Virus genome (UHGV): UHGV-2151295
DNA length: 14,378 nucleotides
Direction: 5' to 3' (one strand)
Source: a virus
Part shown: positions 1 through 14,378 of the stretch, one piece after another
Layout of the letters: the number at the start of each line of letters is the position of its first letter
Numbering within the stretch: the first letter of the stretch is position 1
Notes under the pieces: generated by a model
What the model saw: only the letters and a program-made list of their open reading frames with translations
What the model was told of the DNA's origin: nothing
Database searches by the model: none
Position numbers and translations under genes: made by a program

Positions 1-105
1 CTTGCCACCACCCCGCAGAACGGGCATTCCCTGCTCCTGCCAGTTCTGAATGGTACGGATACTCGCACCGAAAATGTCAGCCAGCTGCTTTTTGTTGACT
101 TCCAT
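1..105 (-). CDS. nu1: Terminase small subunit Nu1, N-terminal 35 codons (gene continues beyond left edge of window)
   Basis: Reverse-complement translation from ATG at 105..103 gives MEVNKKQLADIFGASIRTIQNWQEQGMPVLRGGGK, which I recognise as the lambda Nu1 N-terminus (winged-helix cosB-binding domain). Truncated by the window edge. Confidence 0.9.
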   Translation of the reverse strand, partial: MEVNKKQLADIFGASIRTIQNWQEQGMPVLRGGGK

Positions 106-119
106 TGTTCATTCCACGG

Positions 120-300
120 ACAAAAACAGAGAAAGGAAACGACAGAGGCCAAAAAGCTCGTTTTCAGCACCTGTCGTTTCCTTTCTTTTCATAGGGTGTT
201 TTAAATAAAAACATTAGGTTACGGCGAAGAAGAACGGAAACGCCTTAAACCGGAAAATTTTCATAAATAGCGAAAACCCGCGCGCCTTCCGCCCCGTGAG
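120..300. other. cos region (cosB plus cosN-equivalent at about 283..294)
   Basis: Sequence between the Nu1 start and position 282 matches, in reverse complement, the lambda left-end leader (CGCGGGTTTTCGCTATTTATGAAAATTTTCCGGTTTAAGGCG...) with a few substitutions. The 12 nt where lambda has its cohesive end read GGGCGGAAGGCG here on the minus strand. Confidence 0.7.
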
Positions 301-442
301 AGCTCAGGTCATCAGAAGGACCCACATTAAAGGCAGAATATTCACTCTGATATTACGCATTGTTTTGCTTTTGTAGATTCGCAATTTACGGTAAAAATCC
401 TTTTGCTATTTCTTCGTACCATAAATGCACAGGAGTATCTTA

Positions 443-763
443 ATGTCCATAAAGGTATTCAGAAGTGACCTTCAGACTGAGAGTGAATCAGACTATCGTA
501 ATTGGCTTGGCGATAATCCAGACGGATATGTTGTCAATGCATTGAAGCGAACCAGAGGTAAAGGTAATAAATCTGACGAACGCTTTACCAGAATCCATAG
601 AGCATCTTGCAAAACGATTAATCCCCTGAAACGCAAGATCGATAAAACAGGATTCACAACTGGAGATTATCAAAAAATATGCTCAACCAACTTCCTCAAT
701 GTTGAAAATGAAGCAAAGAAAATGACAGGTCTGACGAGCATCATCAAATGTCGATGCATCTAA
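443..763 (+). CDS. Hypothetical protein, 106 aa, Lys/Arg-rich, at the bor locus
   Basis: ORF track 425..763; AGGAG at 431..435 sits 7 nt upstream of ATG 443, so 443 is the likelier start. AT-rich. Same orientation as lambda bor but the sequence is not Bor (no lipoprotein signal). No family recognised. Confidence 0.45.
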   Translation: MSIKVFRSDLQTESESDYRNWLGDNPDGYVVNALKRTRGKGNKSDERFTRIHRASCKTINPLKRKIDKTGFTTGDYQKICSTNFLNVENEAKKMTGLTSIIKCRCI

Positions 764-980
764 AGCGTCCTGTAATTAACATGTTCAAAACACTCTCCGG
801 GTGACCGCTAATGCTGTTGTCAGCCAAAAACTCTACGTTTCGATTATGTCAATTTTGCACCGCCCGATGCCGATAAATGCGAAAATCCGGCGACTATGTA
901 GCGTAATCAAATCAACGAGATACCACTTTCATGAAATAATTATCATCTGTCAGTTCAATATCAATGTTGAGAGAGAATAA

Positions 981-1133
981 ATGAGAGGAATGCCAAGAGG
1001 AAGTCGAGGACAGAGGGCTGTCCAGTCAACAGCAAGAAGAGCAAGACGATCAAATGCCAGCCATTCTGACCAATTAGGATGCCTGGCACTAATCATCTTT
1101 GGCCTGATATTTATCTATTTCATGGCTAATTAG
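981..1133 (+). CDS. Putative small membrane protein, 50 aa (Arg-rich N-terminus, C-terminal hydrophobic helix)
   Basis: Translated by hand: MRGMPRGSRGQRAVQSTARRARRSNASHSDQLGCLALIIFGLIFIYFMAN, stop TAG at 1131..1133. Purine-rich GAGAGAGA upstream of the ATG. Below the ORF-track size cutoff. Uses many rare Arg codons (AGA/AGG/CGA), so it may not be expressed. Confidence 0.3.
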   Translation: MRGMPRGSRGQRAVQSTARRARRSNASHSDQLGCLALIIFGLIFIYFMAN

Positions 1134-1143
1134 CAAAGATTGC

Positions 1144-1422
1144 TCATCTTACACACTGCGTTCGAATGTATTGCTGCAAGCCTCGGATCATTTTATCACT
1201 GGTTTCAATCCGCTTTCTAAGGGTGAAATAATCCCGTTGAGCGGTGTCAGTAAGTCTGGGGCTGGCGCCATCATCCACGCCGGAGGCGGCGGTGATTTTA
1301 TGCATGTCGGGACAGACTGCATTGAAGCGCAGCCGCTTACGCCCAGCAGAAACATCAGCACGTAGACTTTCGATAACCTGCTCATTGCTGCCCCCACAAA
1401 CAGACTTCACGCTCAATCTCAC
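1144..1422 (-). CDS. rz: Spanin inner-membrane subunit Rz-like, apparently N-terminally short (92 aa, GTG start)
   Basis: C-terminal 70 aa ([15 protein letters not shown]...[18 protein letters not shown]...) align to lambda Rz. The frame has an in-frame TGA at 1431..1429, so the ORF cannot extend to encode the N-terminal TM anchor of a 153-aa Rz. Confidence 0.65.
1188..1385 (-). CDS. rz1: Spanin outer-membrane lipoprotein Rz1 (embedded in Rz, +1 frame)
   Basis: [19 protein letters not shown] lipobox followed by the proline-rich [13 protein letters not shown]...TPLNGIISP motif characteristic of lambda Rz1. ATG at 1385..1383 overlaps the endolysin stop. Confidence 0.7.
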
Positions 1423-1696
1423 GGCGAGTCATCAGCCCTTTCCATTGCTTACCGCCAGCGTATGTCCAGCGACGTAGCTGGTCACATGCGCCTTTGATAT
1501 CGCCCTGGTTTATTTTGCGAAGAAGCGTCGATGTTCTGAAATTGCCAGCACCCACGTTGTAGACGAACGAGTAAAGAGCGCCGCGCGTTGTTTCCGGTAT
1601 ATCGACTTTGATGTACGGGTTAATTTGTCTGGCGACCGTGGCAAGGTCTTTATTCAGGAGGGCTTTGCATTCTGCTTCGGTATACGTTTTAGATGG
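1382..1696 (-). pseudogene. Endolysin remnant: C-terminal about 104 codons of a GH24 (T4-lysozyme-like, R21/RrrD-type) lysozyme, with no start codon and no catalytic N-terminus
   Basis: Minus-strand translation [104 protein letters not shown]. It is in the same frame as ren and begins 2 codons after the ren TGA (1699..1697). The N-terminal about 60 aa that carry the catalytic Glu/Asp/Thr triad in this family are absent. Confidence 0.7.
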
Positions 1697-1987
1697 TCAT
1701 CTTTTAACTCCATATACTGCCAATACCCGTTTCATCGCGGCACTCTGGCGACACTCCTTAAAAATCAGGTTCGTGCTCATCTTTCCTTCCCGTTCTTCCC
1801 TGGTAGCAAACCGGTAATACACCGTTCGCCAGACCTTACCTTCGATAACCAGAAGACCTGCCCGTGCCATTTTAGCCGCGGCCTGATTTATGCTGGTTAC
1901 TGTTGCGCCTGTTAGCGCGGCAACGTCCGGCGCACAGAAGCTATTATGCGTCCCCAGGTAATGAATAATTGCCTCTTTGCCCGTCAT
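1697..1987 (-). CDS. ren: Ren protein (Rex-exclusion resistance), 96 aa
   Basis: Translation MTGKEAIIHYLGTHNSFCAPDVAALTGATVTSINQAAAKMARAG... recognised as lambda Ren; lies directly downstream of P as in lambda. Confidence 0.85.
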   Translation of the reverse strand: MTGKEAIIHYLGTHNSFCAPDVAALTGATVTSINQAAAKMARAGLLVIEGKVWRTVYYRFATREEREGKMSTNLIFKECRQSAAMKRVLAVYGVKR

Positions 1988-7703: not shown

Positions 7704-7723
7704 ATCTATGAGGATATGAATAG

Positions 7724-8092
7724 ATGTCAAACATCAAAAAATACATCATTGATTACGACTGGAAAGCATCAATAGAAATTGAAATCGACCATGACGTAAT
7801 GACAGAGGAAAAACTTCACCAGATTAATAATTTCTGGTCAGACTCTGAATACCGACTCAATAAACACGGCTCTGTATTAAATGCTGTATTAATCATGCTG
7901 GCGCAACATGCTCTGCTTATCGCAATTTCAAGCGACTTAAATGCATATGGTGTTGTGTGTGAGTTCGACTGGAATGATGGAAATGGTCAGGAAGGATGGC
8001 CTCCAATGGATGGTAGCGAAGGAATAAGAATTACCGATATCGATACATCAGGAATATTTGATTCAGATGATATGACTATCAAGGCCGCCTGA
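7724..8092 (+). CDS. ea10: Ea10 protein, 122 aa
   Basis: Translation MSNIKKYIIDYDWKASIEIEIDHDVMTEEKLHQINNFWSDSEYRLNKHG... recognised as lambda Ea10. Confidence 0.85.
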   Translation: MSNIKKYIIDYDWKASIEIEIDHDVMTEEKLHQINNFWSDSEYRLNKHGSVLNAVLIMLAQHALLIAISSDLNAYGVVCEFDWNDGNGQEGWPPMDGSEGIRITDIDTSGIFDSDDMTIKAA

Positions 8093-8164
8093 GTGCGGCT
8101 TTACCGCATACCAATAACGCTTCACTCGAGGCGTTTTTCGTTATGTATAAATAAGGAGCACACC

Positions 8165-8817: not shown

Positions 8818-9603
8818 ATGAGTACAGCACTCGCAACGCTGGCAGGGAAGCTGGCTGAACGTGTCGGCATGGATTCTGTCGACCCACAGGAACTGATCAC
8901 CACTCTTCGCCAGACGGCATTTAAAGGCGATGCCAGCGATGCGCAGTTCATCGCATTGCTGATCGTCGCCAACCAGTACGGCCTTAATCCGTGGACGAAA
9001 GAAATTTACGCCTTTCCTGACAAGCAGAACGGCATCGTTCCGGTGGTGGGCGTTGATGGCTGGTCCCGCATCATCAATGAAAACCAGCAGTTTGATGGCA
9101 TGGACTTTGAGCAGGACAATGAATCCTGTACATGCCGGATTTACCGCAAGGACCGCAATCATCCGATCTGCGTTACCGAATGGATGGATGAATGCCGCCG
9201 CGAACCATTCAAAACCCGCGAAGGCAGAGAAATCACGGGGCCGTGGCAGTCGCATCCTAAACGGATGTTACGGCATAAAGCCATGATTCAGTGTGCCCGT
9301 CTCGCCTTCGGATTTGCTGGTATCTATGACAAGGATGAAGCCGAGCGCATTGTCGAAAATACCGCATACACTGCAGAACGTCAGCCGGAACGCGACATCA
9401 CTCCGGTTAACGATGAAACCATGCAGGAGATTAACACTCTGCTGATCGCCCTGGATAAAACATGGGATGACGACTTATTGCCGCTCTGTTCCCAGATATT
9501 TCGCCGCGACATTCGAGCATCGTCAGAACTGACACAGGCCGAAGCAGTGAAAGCTCTTGGATTCCTGAAACAGAAAGCCACTGAGCAGAAGGTGGCAGCA
9601 TGA
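8818..9603 (+). CDS. bet: Bet (Red-beta single-strand annealing protein), 261 aa
   Basis: Translation [59 protein letters not shown]... recognised as lambda Bet. Confidence 0.95.
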
Positions 9604-10280
9604 CACCGGACATTATACTGCAGCGTACCGGGATCGACGTGAGAGCTGTCGAACAGGGGGATGATGCGTGGCACAAATTACGGCTCGGCGTCATCACCGC
9701 TTCAGAAGTTCACAATGTGATAGCAAAACCCCGCTCCGGAAAGAAATGGCCTGACATGAAAATGTCCTACTTCCACACCCTGCTTGCCGAGGTTTGCACC
9801 GGTGTGGCTCCGGAAGTTAACGCTAAGGCGCTGGCCTGGGGAAAACAGTACGAGAACGACGCCAGAGCCCTGTTTGAGTTTACTTCCGGCGTGAATGTTA
9901 CTGAATCCCCGATCATCTATCGCGACGAAAGTATGCGCACCGCCTGCTCTCCCGATGGTTTATGCAGTGACGGCAATGGCCTTGAGCTGAAATGCCCGTT
10001 TACCTCCCGGGATTTCATGAAGTTCCGGCTCGGTGGTTTCGAGGCCATAAAGTCGGCTTACATGGCCCAGGTGCAGTACAGCATGTGGGTGACACGAAAA
10101 GATGCCTGGTACTTTGCCAACTATGACCCGCGCATGAAGCGTGAAGGCCTGCATTATGTCGTGGTTGAGCGGGATGAAAATTACATGGCGAGTTTTGACG
10201 AGATGGTGCCGGAGTTCATCGAAAAAATGGACGAGGCACTGGCTGAAATTGGTTTTGTATTTGGGGAGCAATGGCGATGA
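9600..10280 (+). CDS. exo: Exo (Red-alpha 5'-3' exonuclease), 226 aa
   Basis: Translation [68 protein letters not shown]... recognised as lambda Exo; 4-nt overlap with bet. Confidence 0.95.
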
Positions 10281-10459
10281 AGCATCCTCACGATAATATC
10301 CGGGTAGGCGCGATCACTTTCGTCTACTCCGTTACAAAGCGAGGCTGGGTATTTCCCGGTCTTTCTGTTATCCGAAATCCACTGAAAGCACAGCGGCTGG
10401 CTGAAGAGATAAATAATAAACGAGGGGCTGTATGCACAAAGCATCTCCTGTTGAATTAA
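10271..10459 (+). CDS. Small protein, lambda orf60a-like, 62 aa
   Basis: [55 protein letters not shown]... in the position and orientation of lambda orf60a, immediately after exo. Confidence 0.55.
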
Positions 10460-10623
10460 GAACGAGTATCGAGATGGCACATAGCCTCGCTCAAATTGGA
10501 GTCAGGTTTGTGCCAATACCAGTAGAAACAGACGAAGAATTTCATACGTTAGCCGCATCCCTTTCACAAAAGCTGGAAATGATGGCGGCGAAAGCAGAAG
10601 CAAACGAGAGAGACCCGGCATGA
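10432..10623 (+). CDS. Small protein, lambda orf63-like, 63 aa
   Basis: [66 protein letters not shown]; position and sequence as I recall for lambda orf63. Confidence 0.6.
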   Translation: MHKASPVELRTSIEMAHSLAQIGVRFVPIPVETDEEFHTLAASLSQKLEMMAAKAEANERDPA

Positions 10624-10699
10624 CAACAACAGAATGCATTTTTCTGGCAGCGGGCTTCATATTCTGTGTGCTTATGCTTGCCGACATGGGACTTGTTCA

Positions 10700-10915
10700 A
10701 TGACACCTCAGCAAGAAAACGCCCTTCGCAGCATTGCCCGTCAGGCTAATTCTGAAATCAAAAATGCCAGACAGCAGTTTCCGGATAAAAACGTCGATGA
10801 CATTTGCCGTAGCGTACTGAAGAAGCACCGCGAAACGGTAGCGCTGATGGGATTCACACCGACTCATTTAAGCCTGGCGATCGGCATGTTAAACGGCGTC
10901 TTTAAGGAACGGTGA
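10700..10915 (+). CDS. Small protein, lambda orf61-like, about 71 aa
   Basis: Internal Met of ORF 10634..10915: MTPQQENALRSIARQANSEIKNARQQFPDKNVDDICRSVLKKHRETVALMGFTPTHLSLAIGMLNGVFKER. The upstream extension is unlikely. Confidence 0.55.
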   Translation: MTPQQENALRSIARQANSEIKNARQQFPDKNVDDICRSVLKKHRETVALMGFTPTHLSLAIGMLNGVFKER

Positions 10916-11013
10916 ACATGAAAAGCAAAATCATCAGGGAGCTACAGGCTCCTTTTTTATTGTTCGCATTCACCCTCAAGCGTATTAACCAACAATTCAG
11001 GGATTAATGAAAG

Positions 11014-11232
11014 ATGGCAGACATCATTGATTCAGCATCAGAAATCGAAGAATTACAGCGCAATACAGCAATAAAAATGCGTCGTCTGAACCACCAGGCT
11101 ATATCTGCCACTCATTGTTGTGAGTGTGGCGATCCGATAGATGAACTAAGACGTCTGGCCGTTCAGGGTTGTCGGACTTGTGCAAGTTGCCAGGAGGAGA
11201 TCGAACTTAAGAACAAACAATGGGGATTGTGA
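11014..11232 (+). CDS. TraR/DksA-family C4 zinc-finger protein, 72 aa
   Basis: Translation MADIIDSASEIEELQRNTAIKMRRLNHQAISATHCCECGDPIDELRRLAVQGCRTCASCQEEIELKNKQWGL: an N-terminal helix followed by paired CxxC motifs (C-x2-C ... C-x2-C-x2-C), typical of the short phage TraR-like members of the DksA family. Confidence 0.7.
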   Translation: MADIIDSASEIEELQRNTAIKMRRLNHQAISATHCCECGDPIDELRRLAVQGCRTCASCQEEIELKNKQWGL

Positions 11233-11279
11233 TGGCCTCAAAGCAGCAAATTTCAACATCGTCCAACTGAGGTGTAAAA

Positions 11280-11558
11280 ATGTTCAGAATCATTTTTCCT
11301 AACACCTGGTACGTCGACCACCACGGCACTCCCTGCAAAATCCTGCGTTCTACCCACAACAAAGTTCACTACATCCGAAAAGGCAGAACATGTATCGCCA
11401 GCATGTTCCGCTTTAATCATGACTTTGAACCTGTGAATAAAGCTGATGCAGATCGGATAGCAGAAGAGATCGAAACGGCAGAACACATTAAGAAGTTACG
11501 TGACATGCGTTCAAAAAGCAGAGGTAACCATGGAATCATACAGCCTCACACTCGATGA
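11280..11558 (+). CDS. Hypothetical protein, 92 aa, upstream of xis
   Basis: ORF with a GAGGTG Shine-Dalgarno 8 nt upstream of ATG 11280; no recognisable domain. The 3' end overlaps the xis start in another frame. Confidence 0.45.
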   Translation: MFRIIFPNTWYVDHHGTPCKILRSTHNKVHYIRKGRTCIASMFRFNHDFEPVNKADADRIAEEIETAEHIKKLRDMRSKSRGNHGIIQPHTR

Positions 11559-11880
11559 GGCCTGTCAGTTTCTCAAGATATCCAGACCTACCGCTACCAA
11601 CTGGATACGAACAGGCCGCCTACAGGCAACACGCAAAGACCCCACTAAACCAAAATCTCCTTACCTCACAACGCGACAAGCCTGCATTGCGGCGCTTCAG
11701 TCTCCGCTGCATACTATCAAGGTGAGCGCGGGTGATGGCATAACAGAGGAAAGAAAATGTCACTCTTCCGCAGAGGTGAAATATGGTACGCCAGTTTCAC
11801 ATTGCCGAACGGTAAAAGATTTAAACAGTCTCTTGGAACAAAGGACAAAAGGCAGGCGACAGAACTCCATGACAAGCTAA
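11530..11880 (+). CDS. xis: Excisionase Xis, P22-type, 116 aa
   Basis: Internal Met of ORF 11500..11880: [50 protein letters not shown]... recognised as near-identical to P22 Xis; 3' end overlaps the int start by about 124 nt. Confidence 0.85.
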
Positions 11881-12920
11881 AGGCTGAAGCATGGCGGGTC
11901 AGCAAACTTGGTGAAATACCTGATATAACGTTCGAGGAAGCGTGTGTCAGGTGGCTTGAAGAGAAAGCACATAAAAAATCACTGGACGATGACAAAAGCC
12001 GGATCGGATTCTGGCTTCAACATTTCGCAGGAATGCAACTAAGAGACATTACTGAATCAAAAATTTATTCAGCAATGCAGAAAATGACGAACCGGCGTCA
12101 TGAGGAAAACTGGAAACTCAGGGCAGAAGCATGCAGAAAAAAAGGGAAACCTGTTCCAGAATACACGCCAAAACCAGCGTCCGTTGCAACGAAGGCTACG
12201 CATCTTTCATTTATAAAGGCTCTGCTAAGAGCCGCAGAGCGTGAATGGAAAATGCTGGATAAGGCACCAATTATTAAAGTGCCTCAACCAAAGAATAAAC
12301 GGATCCGCTGGCTGGAGCCCCATGAAGCACAAAGGCTGATTGATGAATGTCCGGAGCCATTAAAGTCTGTTGTTGAATTTGCACTGGCAACAGGCTTAAG
12401 ACGCTCGAACATCATCAACCTTGAATGGCAACAAATAGATATGCAGCGCCGGGTGGCATGGATAAACCCGGAAGAGAGTAAATCAAACCGCGCAATTGGC
12501 GTTGCGCTGAATGATACTGCATGTCGCGTATTGAAAAAACAAATCGGGAATCATCACCGTTGGGTATTTGTGTACAAGGAAAGCTGTACCAAACCAGACG
12601 GAACGAAAGCGCCAACAGTAAGGAAGATGCGGTATGACGCAAACACAGCCTGGAAAGCGGCGCTGAGACGGGCTGGTATTGATGATTTCAGATTTCACGA
12701 CTTGAGACACACTTGGGCAAGTTGGCTGGTTCAAGCCGGAGTCCCGTTGTCAGTGTTACAGGAAATGGGAGGCTGGGAGTCTATCGAAATGGTTCGTCGA
12801 TATGCTCACCTTGCACCTAATCACCTTACCGAACACGCACGGCAAATAGACTCGATCCTAAACCCATCGGTCCCAAATTTGTCCCAGTCAAAAAATAAGG
12901 AAGGTACTAATGATGTGTAA
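11757..12920 (+). CDS. int: Tyrosine integrase, P22-type (thrW-targeting), 387 aa
   Basis: Translation [53 protein letters not shown]... recognised as P22 Int; conserved R...HxxR...Y catalytic box ([13 protein letters not shown]...MVRRYAHL) present. Stop 4 bp from the tRNA 3' end. Confidence 0.95.
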
Positions 12921-12924
12921 CTTA

Positions 12925-12970
12925 TTGATTTAAATGGTGCCGATAATAGGAGTCGAACCTACGACCTTCG
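12925..12970. other. Prophage attachment site (int-proximal att core, overlapping the 3' half of tRNA-Thr)
   Basis: Inference: the integrase gene ends 4 bp from the tRNA CCA end, and P22-type integrases recombine within the anticodon-to-3' portion of thrW. The exact core boundaries cannot be set without the second att copy, which is outside the window. Confidence 0.45.
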
Positions 12971-13000
12971 CATTACGAATGCGCTGCTCTACCAACTGAG
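12925..13000 (-). tRNA. thrW: tRNA-Thr (anticodon CGU), 76 nt including encoded CCA
   Basis: Minus-strand sequence GCCGATATAGCTCAGTTGGTAGAGCAGCGCATTCGTAATGCGAAGGTCGTAGGTTCGACTCCTATTATCGGCACCA folds as a cloverleaf by eye: 7-bp acceptor stem, GTTCGACTC T-arm, anticodon loop TTCGTAA giving anticodon CGT. Confidence 0.9.
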
Positions 13001-13124
13001 CTATATCGGCCCTGAAAGGACATGTTCACGAACGTGAATCACGGTGGACAAGGTTAAAACTAACCGGGCGATGCGTCAATGGCCTTGTGAATCAAATGGC
13101 TACTTTTGCATCACCCGGTTTTAT

Positions 13125-14378
13125 TTACGCACGAATGGTGTAATCACCAATGCCGATCCACTTGTAAGTGGTCAGTGCTTCCAGCCCCATTGGGCCACGT
13201 GCGTGCAGTTTTTGTGTGCTTACCGCCACTTCCGCACCCAGTCCAAACTGGCCGCCGTCGGTAAAACGCGTAGAGGCGTTAACGTAAACAGCGGACGAAT
13301 CCACTTCGTTAACAAAACGCTGGGCGTTGCGCATATCGCGGGTCAGGATCGCATCGGAGTGTTGCGTGCCGTGTTCACGAATATGGGCGATGGCATCGTC
13401 AAGATCGCTGACGATTTTGACGTTCAAATCTAATGACAGAAACTCATCGTCATACTCTTCGGCTTTAACCGCCACCACCTTCGCGGGGCCTGCCTGCAAC
13501 TGTGTCAGCGCAGCTGCATCTGCGTGTAATGTCACGCCGCTTTCCGCCATTTGTTTGCTTAATACGGGCAGGAAGCTATCGGCGATGTTTTTATTCACCA
13601 GCAACGTTTCTACCGTATTACATGTGCTCGGACGCTGAGTTTTGGCGTTGACGATCACTTTTAATGCTTCAGCGATCTCTGCACTTTCATCAACGTAAAT
13701 ATGGCATACGCCTATACCACCTGTGATCACCGGGATCGTCGACTGTTCGCGGCACAGTTTATGCAAACCAGCGCCACCACGCGGGATCAGCATGTCGATG
13801 TATTTATCCATACGCAGCATTTCACTGACCAGCGCACGGTCAGGATTATCAATCGCCTGCACGGCACCCGCCGGTAAGCCGCAGGATTTCAGGGCGTCCT
13901 GAATCACCGCCACCGTTGCAGCGTTAGTGCGACACGTTTCTTTGCCACCGCGCAGGATCACCGCATTACCGGTTTTCAGGCACAGCGAAGCGACATCAAC
14001 CGTCACGTTCGGGCGCGCTTCATAAATCACGCCAATAACCCCCAGCGGTACGCGACGACGCTCAAGACGCAGGCCGCTGTCCAGTACGCCGCCATCGATT
14101 ACCTGCCCCACCGGATCGGCGAGGTTGCACACCTGACGTACATCGTCGGCAATGCCTTTCAGCCGTGCGGGCGTCAGTGCCAGACGGTCAAGCATCGCTT
14201 CGCTAAGGCCATTGGCTCGCGCGTCAGCAACATCCTGGGCGTTAGCGTTGAGGATGATTTCGCTTTGTGCTTCCAGTTCATCGGCGATTTTTTCCAGCAC
14301 GCGATTTTTTTCGCGGCTGGAGAGTTGCGCTAATTTATACGAGGCTTGCTTCGCGGCAATGCCCATTTGTTCCAGCAT
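13125..14378 (-). CDS. proA: Gamma-glutamyl phosphate reductase ProA, 417 aa, start codon at the window edge
   Basis: Translation [66 protein letters not shown]... recognised as enterobacterial ProA; the proA-thrW adjacency matches the E. coli chromosome. Confidence 0.95.

Follow-up and report, generated by a model that had tools for sequence, protein, structure and literature searches.

A probable natural right-half allele of the lambda-type cohesive end site in a defective thrW prophage

Lambda-like phages have been defined by the Feiss laboratory as phages whose 12-base 5' ends are similar to those of lambda (PMC4669245). The 7-bp cosQ signal is highly conserved across these phages, as are the CG pairs at both nicks (PMC4669245). 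Differences at bp 7-12 of cosN are common in nature, with N15 and phiD326 departing from lambda at positions 9 and 12, and Gifsy-1 at positions 8, 9 and 11 (PMC4669245). Mutations of bp 7-12 have a minimal phenotype, as the right half of cosN adjoins the cosB-anchored terminase, and lambda terminase does not discriminate between the cosN sequences of lambda and N15, giving equal yields with both (PMC4669245). A 2-bp mismatch between the two chromosome ends, as in the lambda/N15 combination, reduces viability by a factor of about four, with the two alleles segregating in the progeny (PMC4669245). The N15 allele, read directly from its record, is GGGCGGCGTCCG. The putative cosN of mEp213/LLS has been inferred as GGGCGGCGCGCT, with changes at bp 9 and 10 (PMC12315714).

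The window, which is the entire 14,378-nucleotide stretch analyzed (UHGV virus genome UHGV-2151295), contains a site of this kind. The site shares with the lambda cos (J02459) the cosQ heptamer, ACG followed by GGGCGG, the CG nick flanks, bp 13-70, the R3, R2 and R1 elements and the Nu1 N-terminus. The window differs from lambda at cosN bp 7-10 and 12, in a 22-nt spacer and in the sequence upstream of cosQ, which is unrelated to the lambda right end. As in N15/phiD326 and Gifsy-1, the left half, the CG pairs and cosQ are conserved and the changes are confined to bp 7-12. Unlike N15 with two changes from lambda and Gifsy-1 with three, the window allele has five, and it is thus further from lambda than any allele tested experimentally (N15, two changes). 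N15 and Gifsy-1 also have cosB specificities of their own, whereas the window allele sits on a cosB of lambda specificity. The mEp213/LLS cosN is likewise an inferred right-half allele of a lambdoid coliphage, and both it and the window cosN have 8 of 16 symmetric positions. However, the hexamers differ and the head and terminase genes of mEp213/LLS are only distantly related to those of lambda. The prophage DLP12 (E. coli K-12, upstream of nohD) resembles the window in having a lambda-type cos and a Nu1 homologue in a defective prophage, and relatives of the window carry nohD and rrrD annotations. In contrast to the window, DLP12 has the canonical GGGCGGCGACCT, a lambda-like left flank and another integration site, the window prophage being located at thrW near proA.

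Judged by its sequence, the window allele is part of the natural right-half cosN polymorphism already reported for lambda-like phages. A scan for sites with cosQ and GGGCGG but a base other than C at bp 7 recovered many further alleles, including GGGCGGGAGCGT, GGGCGGGAGCGG, GGGCGGGCGGCG and GGGCGGGAGGCG, the last being one base away from the window allele. Right halves found on other cosB types were GAGCGT, GAGCGG, GCGGCG, GAGGCG, GAAGCG, TAGACG, AAGCGT and AGACCG, several of which are only 1-2 bases away from AAGGCG.

Organization of the variant cohesive end site

The minus strand of the window at 294..283 reads GGGCGGAAGGCG, and the lambda counterpart reads GGGCGGCGACCT (alignment to lambda bp 1-12 of J02459). 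The two sequences are identical at 7 of 12 bp, among them all of bp 1-6 (GGGCGG). They differ at bp 7, 8, 9, 10 and 12, and C at bp 11 is common to both. A previous sequence-only reading had contrasted a hexamer AAGGCG with CGACCT in lambda, and the alignment confirms this contrast with five of six bases differing. The lambda reference J02459 does not share the window bases at this position. The order on the minus strand of the window is GGGTCCT-(22 nt)-ACG, GGGCGGAAGGCG and CGCGGGTTTTCGCTATTTATGAAAATTTTCC, compared to GGGTCCT-(23 nt)-ACG, GGGCGGCGACCT and CGCGGGTTTTCGC in lambda. To the right of the window cosN, CGCGGGTTTTCGC is followed by the remainder of a lambda-type cosB, with no difference from lambda over bp 13-70. 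To the left, the match to lambda is limited to ACG and the cosQ heptamer, the remaining flank is not lambda-like, and megablast homology to lambda-like phages ends at window 297. The lambda-like flanks described in the sequence-only reading are hence accurate for the right side, but on the left side only for ACG and cosQ. The same reading had described Nu1 as lambda-like, and all 35 codons in the window indeed translate as in lambda.

The differences in the right half are clustered. Outside the hexamer, nine substitutions and one indel were found in 289 aligned columns (3.5%), and the cos region is otherwise about 96% lambda-like. Five changes within a single hexamer against this background have a binomial probability of ~3e-7, or ~8e-5 when all hexamer positions are allowed for, which points to a block difference rather than to scattered decay. 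The rotational symmetry of the 16-bp cosN covers 8 of 16 positions in the window and 10 of 16 in lambda. The window cosN keeps the symmetric flanks and the genetically important G2/C11, loses pairs 3/10 and 6/7, and gains pair 4/9. The GC content of the overhang is 10/12 in both the variant and lambda, with nearest-neighbor free energies of -17.8 and -18.2 kcal/mol, respectively.

The hexamer AAGGCG is also found at lambda bp 49-54, at the start of R3 (TTAAGGCGTTTCC), so that the window has copies at 241..246 and 283..288, 42 bp apart. The second copy could be due to chance, since a 6-mer would recur at random within 200 bp about one time in ten. Immediately right of variant cosN sites, bases 16 and 18 are not fixed: in place of CGCGGG, strain c1-17 has CGCAGG and four IMG/VR loci (L200, L229, L235 and L238) have CGCGGA.

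Table 1. Features of the cos region and of the adjacent lysis genes in the window.
Feature	Position	Strand	Basis
cosN cohesive-end position, 12 bp	283..294	-	lambda alignment; nick positions inferred from lambda
cosN variable right half (bp 7-12), AAGGCG vs lambda CGACCT	283..288	-	lambda alignment
CG at top-strand nick, conserved; preceding A (297) also kept	295..296	-	lambda alignment
CG at bottom-strand nick (lambda bp 13-14), conserved	281..282	-	lambda alignment
cosQ GGGTCCT, packaging-termination signal; 22 nt upstream of cosN vs 23 nt in lambda	317..323	-	lambda alignment
cosB R3 (GGCGTTTCCGTTCTTC), identical to lambda bp 51-66	229..244	-	lambda alignment
R3-R2 interval, position of lambda IHF site I1; 5 substitutions (lambda bp 71, 73, 78, 97, 103)	189..228	-	alignment
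cosB R2, inverted copy of R motif, identical to lambda	173..188	-	alignment
cosB R1, identical to lambda, 1 bp nearer cosN	128..143	-	alignment
Nu1 (nohD-like small terminase subunit), first 35 codons; runs off window	1..105	-	Pfam Phage_Nu1, E = 5e-18
rrrD endolysin 3' fragment (3' 310 nt; 3' third), fused to end of ren (1697..1987)	1378..1691	-	comparison with 2018-10-2CC
Rz-type lysis gene, truncated to 92 aa (147 aa in intact relatives)	1144..1422	-	~200 bp internal deletion at 1375/1378

The elements surrounding cosN follow the lambda arrangement (Table 1). Both CG nick flanks and cosQ are in place, and the R repeats of cosB follow at the fixed distance, with R3 starting at bp 51, R2 at bp 107 and R1 at bp 152, before the Nu1 ATG at bp 190. 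Within R3, lambda bp 55-63 contact the small terminase subunit (PMC9026076). The slight displacement of R1 is due to a 1-bp gap at lambda bp 138, which recurs in each of the six non-lambda sequences in the alignment, K-12 DLP12 and PhiR46_1 among them. In the R3-R2 interval, the changes at bp 71, 73 and 97 recur in other aligned variant-cos records, and those at bp 78 and 103 are private to the window copy in this alignment. Nu1 residues 1-35, including the helix-turn-helix, are identical to lambda Nu1. Both the R sites and the Nu1 recognition helix are thus those of the lambda packaging specificity (cosB-lambda/Nu1-lambda). Taken by its elements, window 128..323 holds an entire lambda-type cohesive end site with cosQ, cosN and cosB, followed by the Nu1 start.

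The shorter cosQ spacer is not specific to the window. A 22-nt spacer between cosQ and cosN was found in 27 of 86 variant sites compared to 1 of 114 canonical sites (Fisher P ~1e-10), although the sites are not phylogenetically independent and two flank families alone account for the effect (IMG/VR loci L003-L079). The 22-nt spacer is also the norm in the GGGCGGGAGCGT cos family, the commonest of the other right-half families.

State of the prophage carrying the site

The prophage is located at thrW (tRNA-Thr, 12935..13010) beside proA (13125..14378), and the entire window was found in no complete E. coli genome. A search of genome contigs for the ren/rrrD deletion junction likewise gave no match. 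Integrase, exo/bet, the repressor region, O, P and ren are retained. Compared to strain 2018-10-2CC, a 2.76-kb deletion with its junction at 1690/1691 (corresponding to 9566..12322 of the 2018-10-2CC locus) has removed ninB-ninG, Q, two tRNAs, the holin and the 5' end of rrrD. The Rz-type gene is affected too, with SF-468 and H10407 having about 200 bp more than the window at 1375/1378. The window hence lacks the gene set of an active lambdoid prophage, with no Q, no holin and a truncated Rz, and the structural genes lie outside the window. Having lost Q, the holin and lysis genes, the prophage can neither activate its late genes nor bring about lysis. Late genes are not expressible, and the window copy of cos is therefore not currently under selection. 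In the absence of Q, this copy is usable only by a helper with lambda packaging specificity.

The cos region is closely matched in the prophage of SF-468. Across window 1-1375, a single base differs between the two (position 374, outside cos), and the whole window cos is identical to the SF-468 cos, including the substitutions in the R3-R2 interval. The annotation of the SF-468 prophage lists an uninterrupted lambda-like gene set of exo-bet-gam, repressor, O, P, ren, nin genes, Q, holin, endolysin and Rz, together with Nu1, the large terminase subunit, portal, protease, D, E and tail genes. The sole pseudogene in this prophage is an ea22-like gene. As the match is base for base, the window cos equals that of a phage that appears intact.

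Between Rz and cos, a 112-codon open reading frame on the opposite strand (425..763, plus strand) occupies a typical moron position. A shorter form of this reading frame is annotated in the relatives SF-468 and c1-17 as a hypothetical protein (WP_000025003.1), and no Pfam or PHROG match was found for it. The product of a 50-codon open reading frame (981..1133, plus strand) is arginine-rich at the N-terminus and hydrophobic at the C-terminus (MRGMPRGSRGQRAV...LIIFGLIFIYFMAN), resembles a small membrane peptide and has no PHROG match. In the early region, about 400 bp (7705..8106, from the N/sieB side to the cIII/kil side) are absent from the closest relative, the 2018-10-2CC locus, which is otherwise 99% identical on both sides.

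Distribution of the allele and linkage to terminase genes

Of 5,426 complete E. coli genomes, 155 contain the allele with its lambda-type cosB flank, as detected at 166 places by a 36-mer matching solely through the variant bases. For the canonical 36-mer, the numbers are 7,405 places in 4,097 of these genomes, and the variant represents about 2% of the lambda-type cos sites of the species. Among viral contigs of IMG/VR, 77 contain the exact string GGGCGGAAGGCGCGCGGGTTTTCGC. A degenerate scan gave, in its first 120 loci, 112 canonical sites, seven variant sites (~6%) and one GGGCGGCGACCG. A scan of viral contigs with the 16-mer (CG, the 12-mer and CG) returned mostly chance matches in GC-rich contigs without cosQ. 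The same scan added only five further real cos sites, all with a lambda-like cosB, and did not find the allele on any non-lambda cosB type. A sequencing artifact was ruled out, as the same sequence is present in hundreds of independent assemblies.

The 12-mer is conserved in varied surroundings. Across 79 variant sites (the 77 IMG/VR contigs, PhiR46_1 and the window), the 12-mer is invariant over 32 different 45-nt left flanks, ACG precedes cosN, and cosQ is located at 22-23 nt in all but a few. The allele is also found in the phage records PhiR46_1 (PV340565.1, with ECOR13 in the host field) and YDC107_1 (CP025712.1, genus Ravinvirus), neither of which is linearized at cos. Judging by the host field of its record, PhiR46_1 may be a plaque-forming isolate. 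More generally, allele carriers appear to be functional phages based on database records and gene intactness. Plasmids are overrepresented among carriers, with 16 of 166 variant places compared to 19 of 7,405 canonical places in complete E. coli genomes, an approximately 40-fold enrichment. Among the matches listed, plasmids with the variant are 46-68 kb in size. The one plasmid examined in detail, pAH01-1 (46.9 kb), proved to be a phage-plasmid resembling N15, in which a RepA-type replication gene is accompanied by a complete, uninterrupted lambda-like head and tail module.

The allele is mostly linked to complete terminase genes. Among 45 variant loci with at least 2.7 kb of downstream sequence, 40 encode a full-length large terminase subunit (641-642 codons, uninterrupted), and 38 of these 40 are at least 95% identical to lambda gpA. 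The corresponding fraction of full-length large subunits in the canonical set is 41 of 58. Identity to gpA reaches 638/641 in PhiR46_1, 636/641 in pAH01-1 and 634/641 in SF-468. Small subunits accompanying the variant form at least two haplotypes, with identities to the lambda protein of 93% and 98-99%.

The terminase does not co-vary with the cosN allele. No large-subunit position is fixed between alleles in a comparison of 38 variant-linked and 32 canonical-linked lambda-type large subunits, and co-variation of this subunit with the allele was rejected on these grounds. The majority residue differs at two positions only (185 D/E and 459 V/I), both of which are polymorphic within each group. 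Identical copies of four large-subunit proteins were found with both alleles, and so were one 178-nt cosB haplotype and six 40-nt left-flank haplotypes. Finding both alleles on identical DNA flanks and with identical large subunits indicates that the hexamer was exchanged as a unit and that the same terminase serves both. On identical flanks, the breakpoints fall exactly at the nick sites, and the homology break in the window falls at the left edge of cosN. One possible explanation is that alleles are exchanged through occasional packaging between heteroallelic cos sites, followed by segregation from mismatched ends, as demonstrated by the Feiss laboratory for lambda/N15. Short-patch conversion would also fit the presence of both alleles on identical flanks.

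Interpretation of the variant and loci with repeated sites

The cosN of the window very probably carries a natural, functional allele of the lambda-type cos, GGGCGGAAGGCG, rather than damage from decay. The allele looks selected, not broken, as far as the sequences indicate. The analysis establishes the sequence, conservation pattern and distribution of the allele, its link to intact terminases and the absence of terminase co-variation, and the nick positions, cleavage by the terminase and the sequence of the overhangs are inferred from lambda. By analogy with lambda, the Nu1 small subunit and IHF would bind R3-I1-R2-R1 and thereby position two gpA-type endonuclease centers on cosN. The nicks would be placed 12 bp apart, beside the two conserved CG pairs, leaving virion DNA with predicted 12-nt 5' overhangs of GGGCGGAAGGCG at the left end and CGCCTTCCGCCC at the right end. 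The terminating cut would be directed by cosQ. The right half of cosN adjoins the cosB-anchored enzyme, hence nicking there should be insensitive to sequence and a lambda-type terminase should cut both alleles. The sole requirement would be that both chromosome ends come from the same allele in order to anneal. The allele is in circulation in E. coli, in lambda-like prophages as well as in N15-like phage-plasmids, and would have been inherited by the window prophage. This prophage would have lost its late-gene regulator and lysis genes later, leaving an intact cos copy that would need a helper phage.

The sequence-only reading favored a nicking site inactivated by mutation, with the hexamer as damage in a dying prophage. 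The prophage is clearly defective, given the deletion of Q, nin genes, the holin and the rrrD 5' end as well as the internal deletion in Rz, and five clustered changes with the loss of two symmetric base pairs look drastic. However, the same 12-mer recurs in 155 genomes and 77 viral contigs, on 32 flanks and with a conserved cosQ. Full-length terminase genes are at least as frequent beside the variant as beside the canonical allele (40/45 and 41/58, respectively). The allele is also found in phage records and intact phage-plasmids, and the window copy equals that of the apparently intact SF-468 prophage. Random hits on five of six adjacent bases would not spare every functionally critical base around them, and published genetics indicates that bp 7-12 tolerate change (PMC4669245). 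Mutational damage is thus the least probable of the readings weighed here. The suspected decay is real for the prophage, as shown by the ren/rrrD deletion and the Rz truncation, but cos was left untouched. The other option raised in the sequence-only reading, a different cohesive-end sequence, is the one that the wide spread of the allele, its varied flanks and the conserved cosQ support. At the level of sequence records, other lambdoid phages do share exactly this cosN.

The variant could alternatively represent a packaging specificity of its own, which would require a matching, altered large subunit and remain uncut by the lambda-type enzyme. Five differences beside the bottom-strand nick could in principle call for a changed endonuclease, and the variant-linked small subunits do fall into at least two haplotypes. 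Such co-adaptation is nonetheless improbable, given that no large-subunit residue is fixed, that four identical proteins, one cosB haplotype and six left-flank haplotypes occur with both alleles, and that R3, R2 and R1 equal those of lambda. The lack of cosN specificity of lambda terminase toward the N15 allele points in the same direction (PMC4669245). A different cut geometry, for example a displaced bottom-strand nick producing an overhang other than the 12-mer, is slightly less probable still. The distance from cosN to R3, which sets the nick position, is unchanged with R3 starting at bp 51, and both CG nick flanks are in the lambda register. N15 also has a G at bp 12, as in the window, and its record annotates a 12-base 5' extension.

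If the window carries a natural allele, the allele might also act as a cohesive-end compatibility group, partly isolating its carriers genetically from the commoner canonical prophages in the same cells. We regard this extension as doubtful. All carriers would share a single terminase specificity, and variant and canonical ends, matching at 7 of 12 positions, should rarely cyclize. Rare heteroallelic packaging resolved by replication would then explain why both alleles are found on identical flanks.

The consequences of a natural allele are modest. A departure from the textbook lambda sticky end is no proof of a dead cos site, and pipelines that locate cos by the canonical 12-mer will overlook roughly 2% of the E. 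coli sites of lambda type. The five-substitution allele extends the documented rule that bp 7-12 are free to vary and that GGGCGG, the CG nick flanks and cosQ are fixed. The defective thrW prophage appears to keep a cos open to cleavage by a lambda-type phage, whether resident or infecting. Such a helper cut could start packaging toward the structural genes and the neighboring chromosome. Beyond annotation, the finding is of little importance; it is real but ordinary.

Repeated cos sites were observed in some IMG/VR prophage contigs (L279, L262, L295 and L303), with two or three directly oriented copies of cosQ-cosN spaced about 2.45 kb from one another. Where there are two sites, their cosN alleles agree, one of the three sites in L262 differs at bp 12, and the flanks on the cosB side differ. 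The interval in L279 (11142..13624) contains genes for a major capsid protein resembling lambda gpE (Pfam Phage_cap_E, E = 9e-50) and for a decoration protein resembling gpD. The multi-cos cassette in L279 may be of a satellite type, located just upstream of a phage cos.
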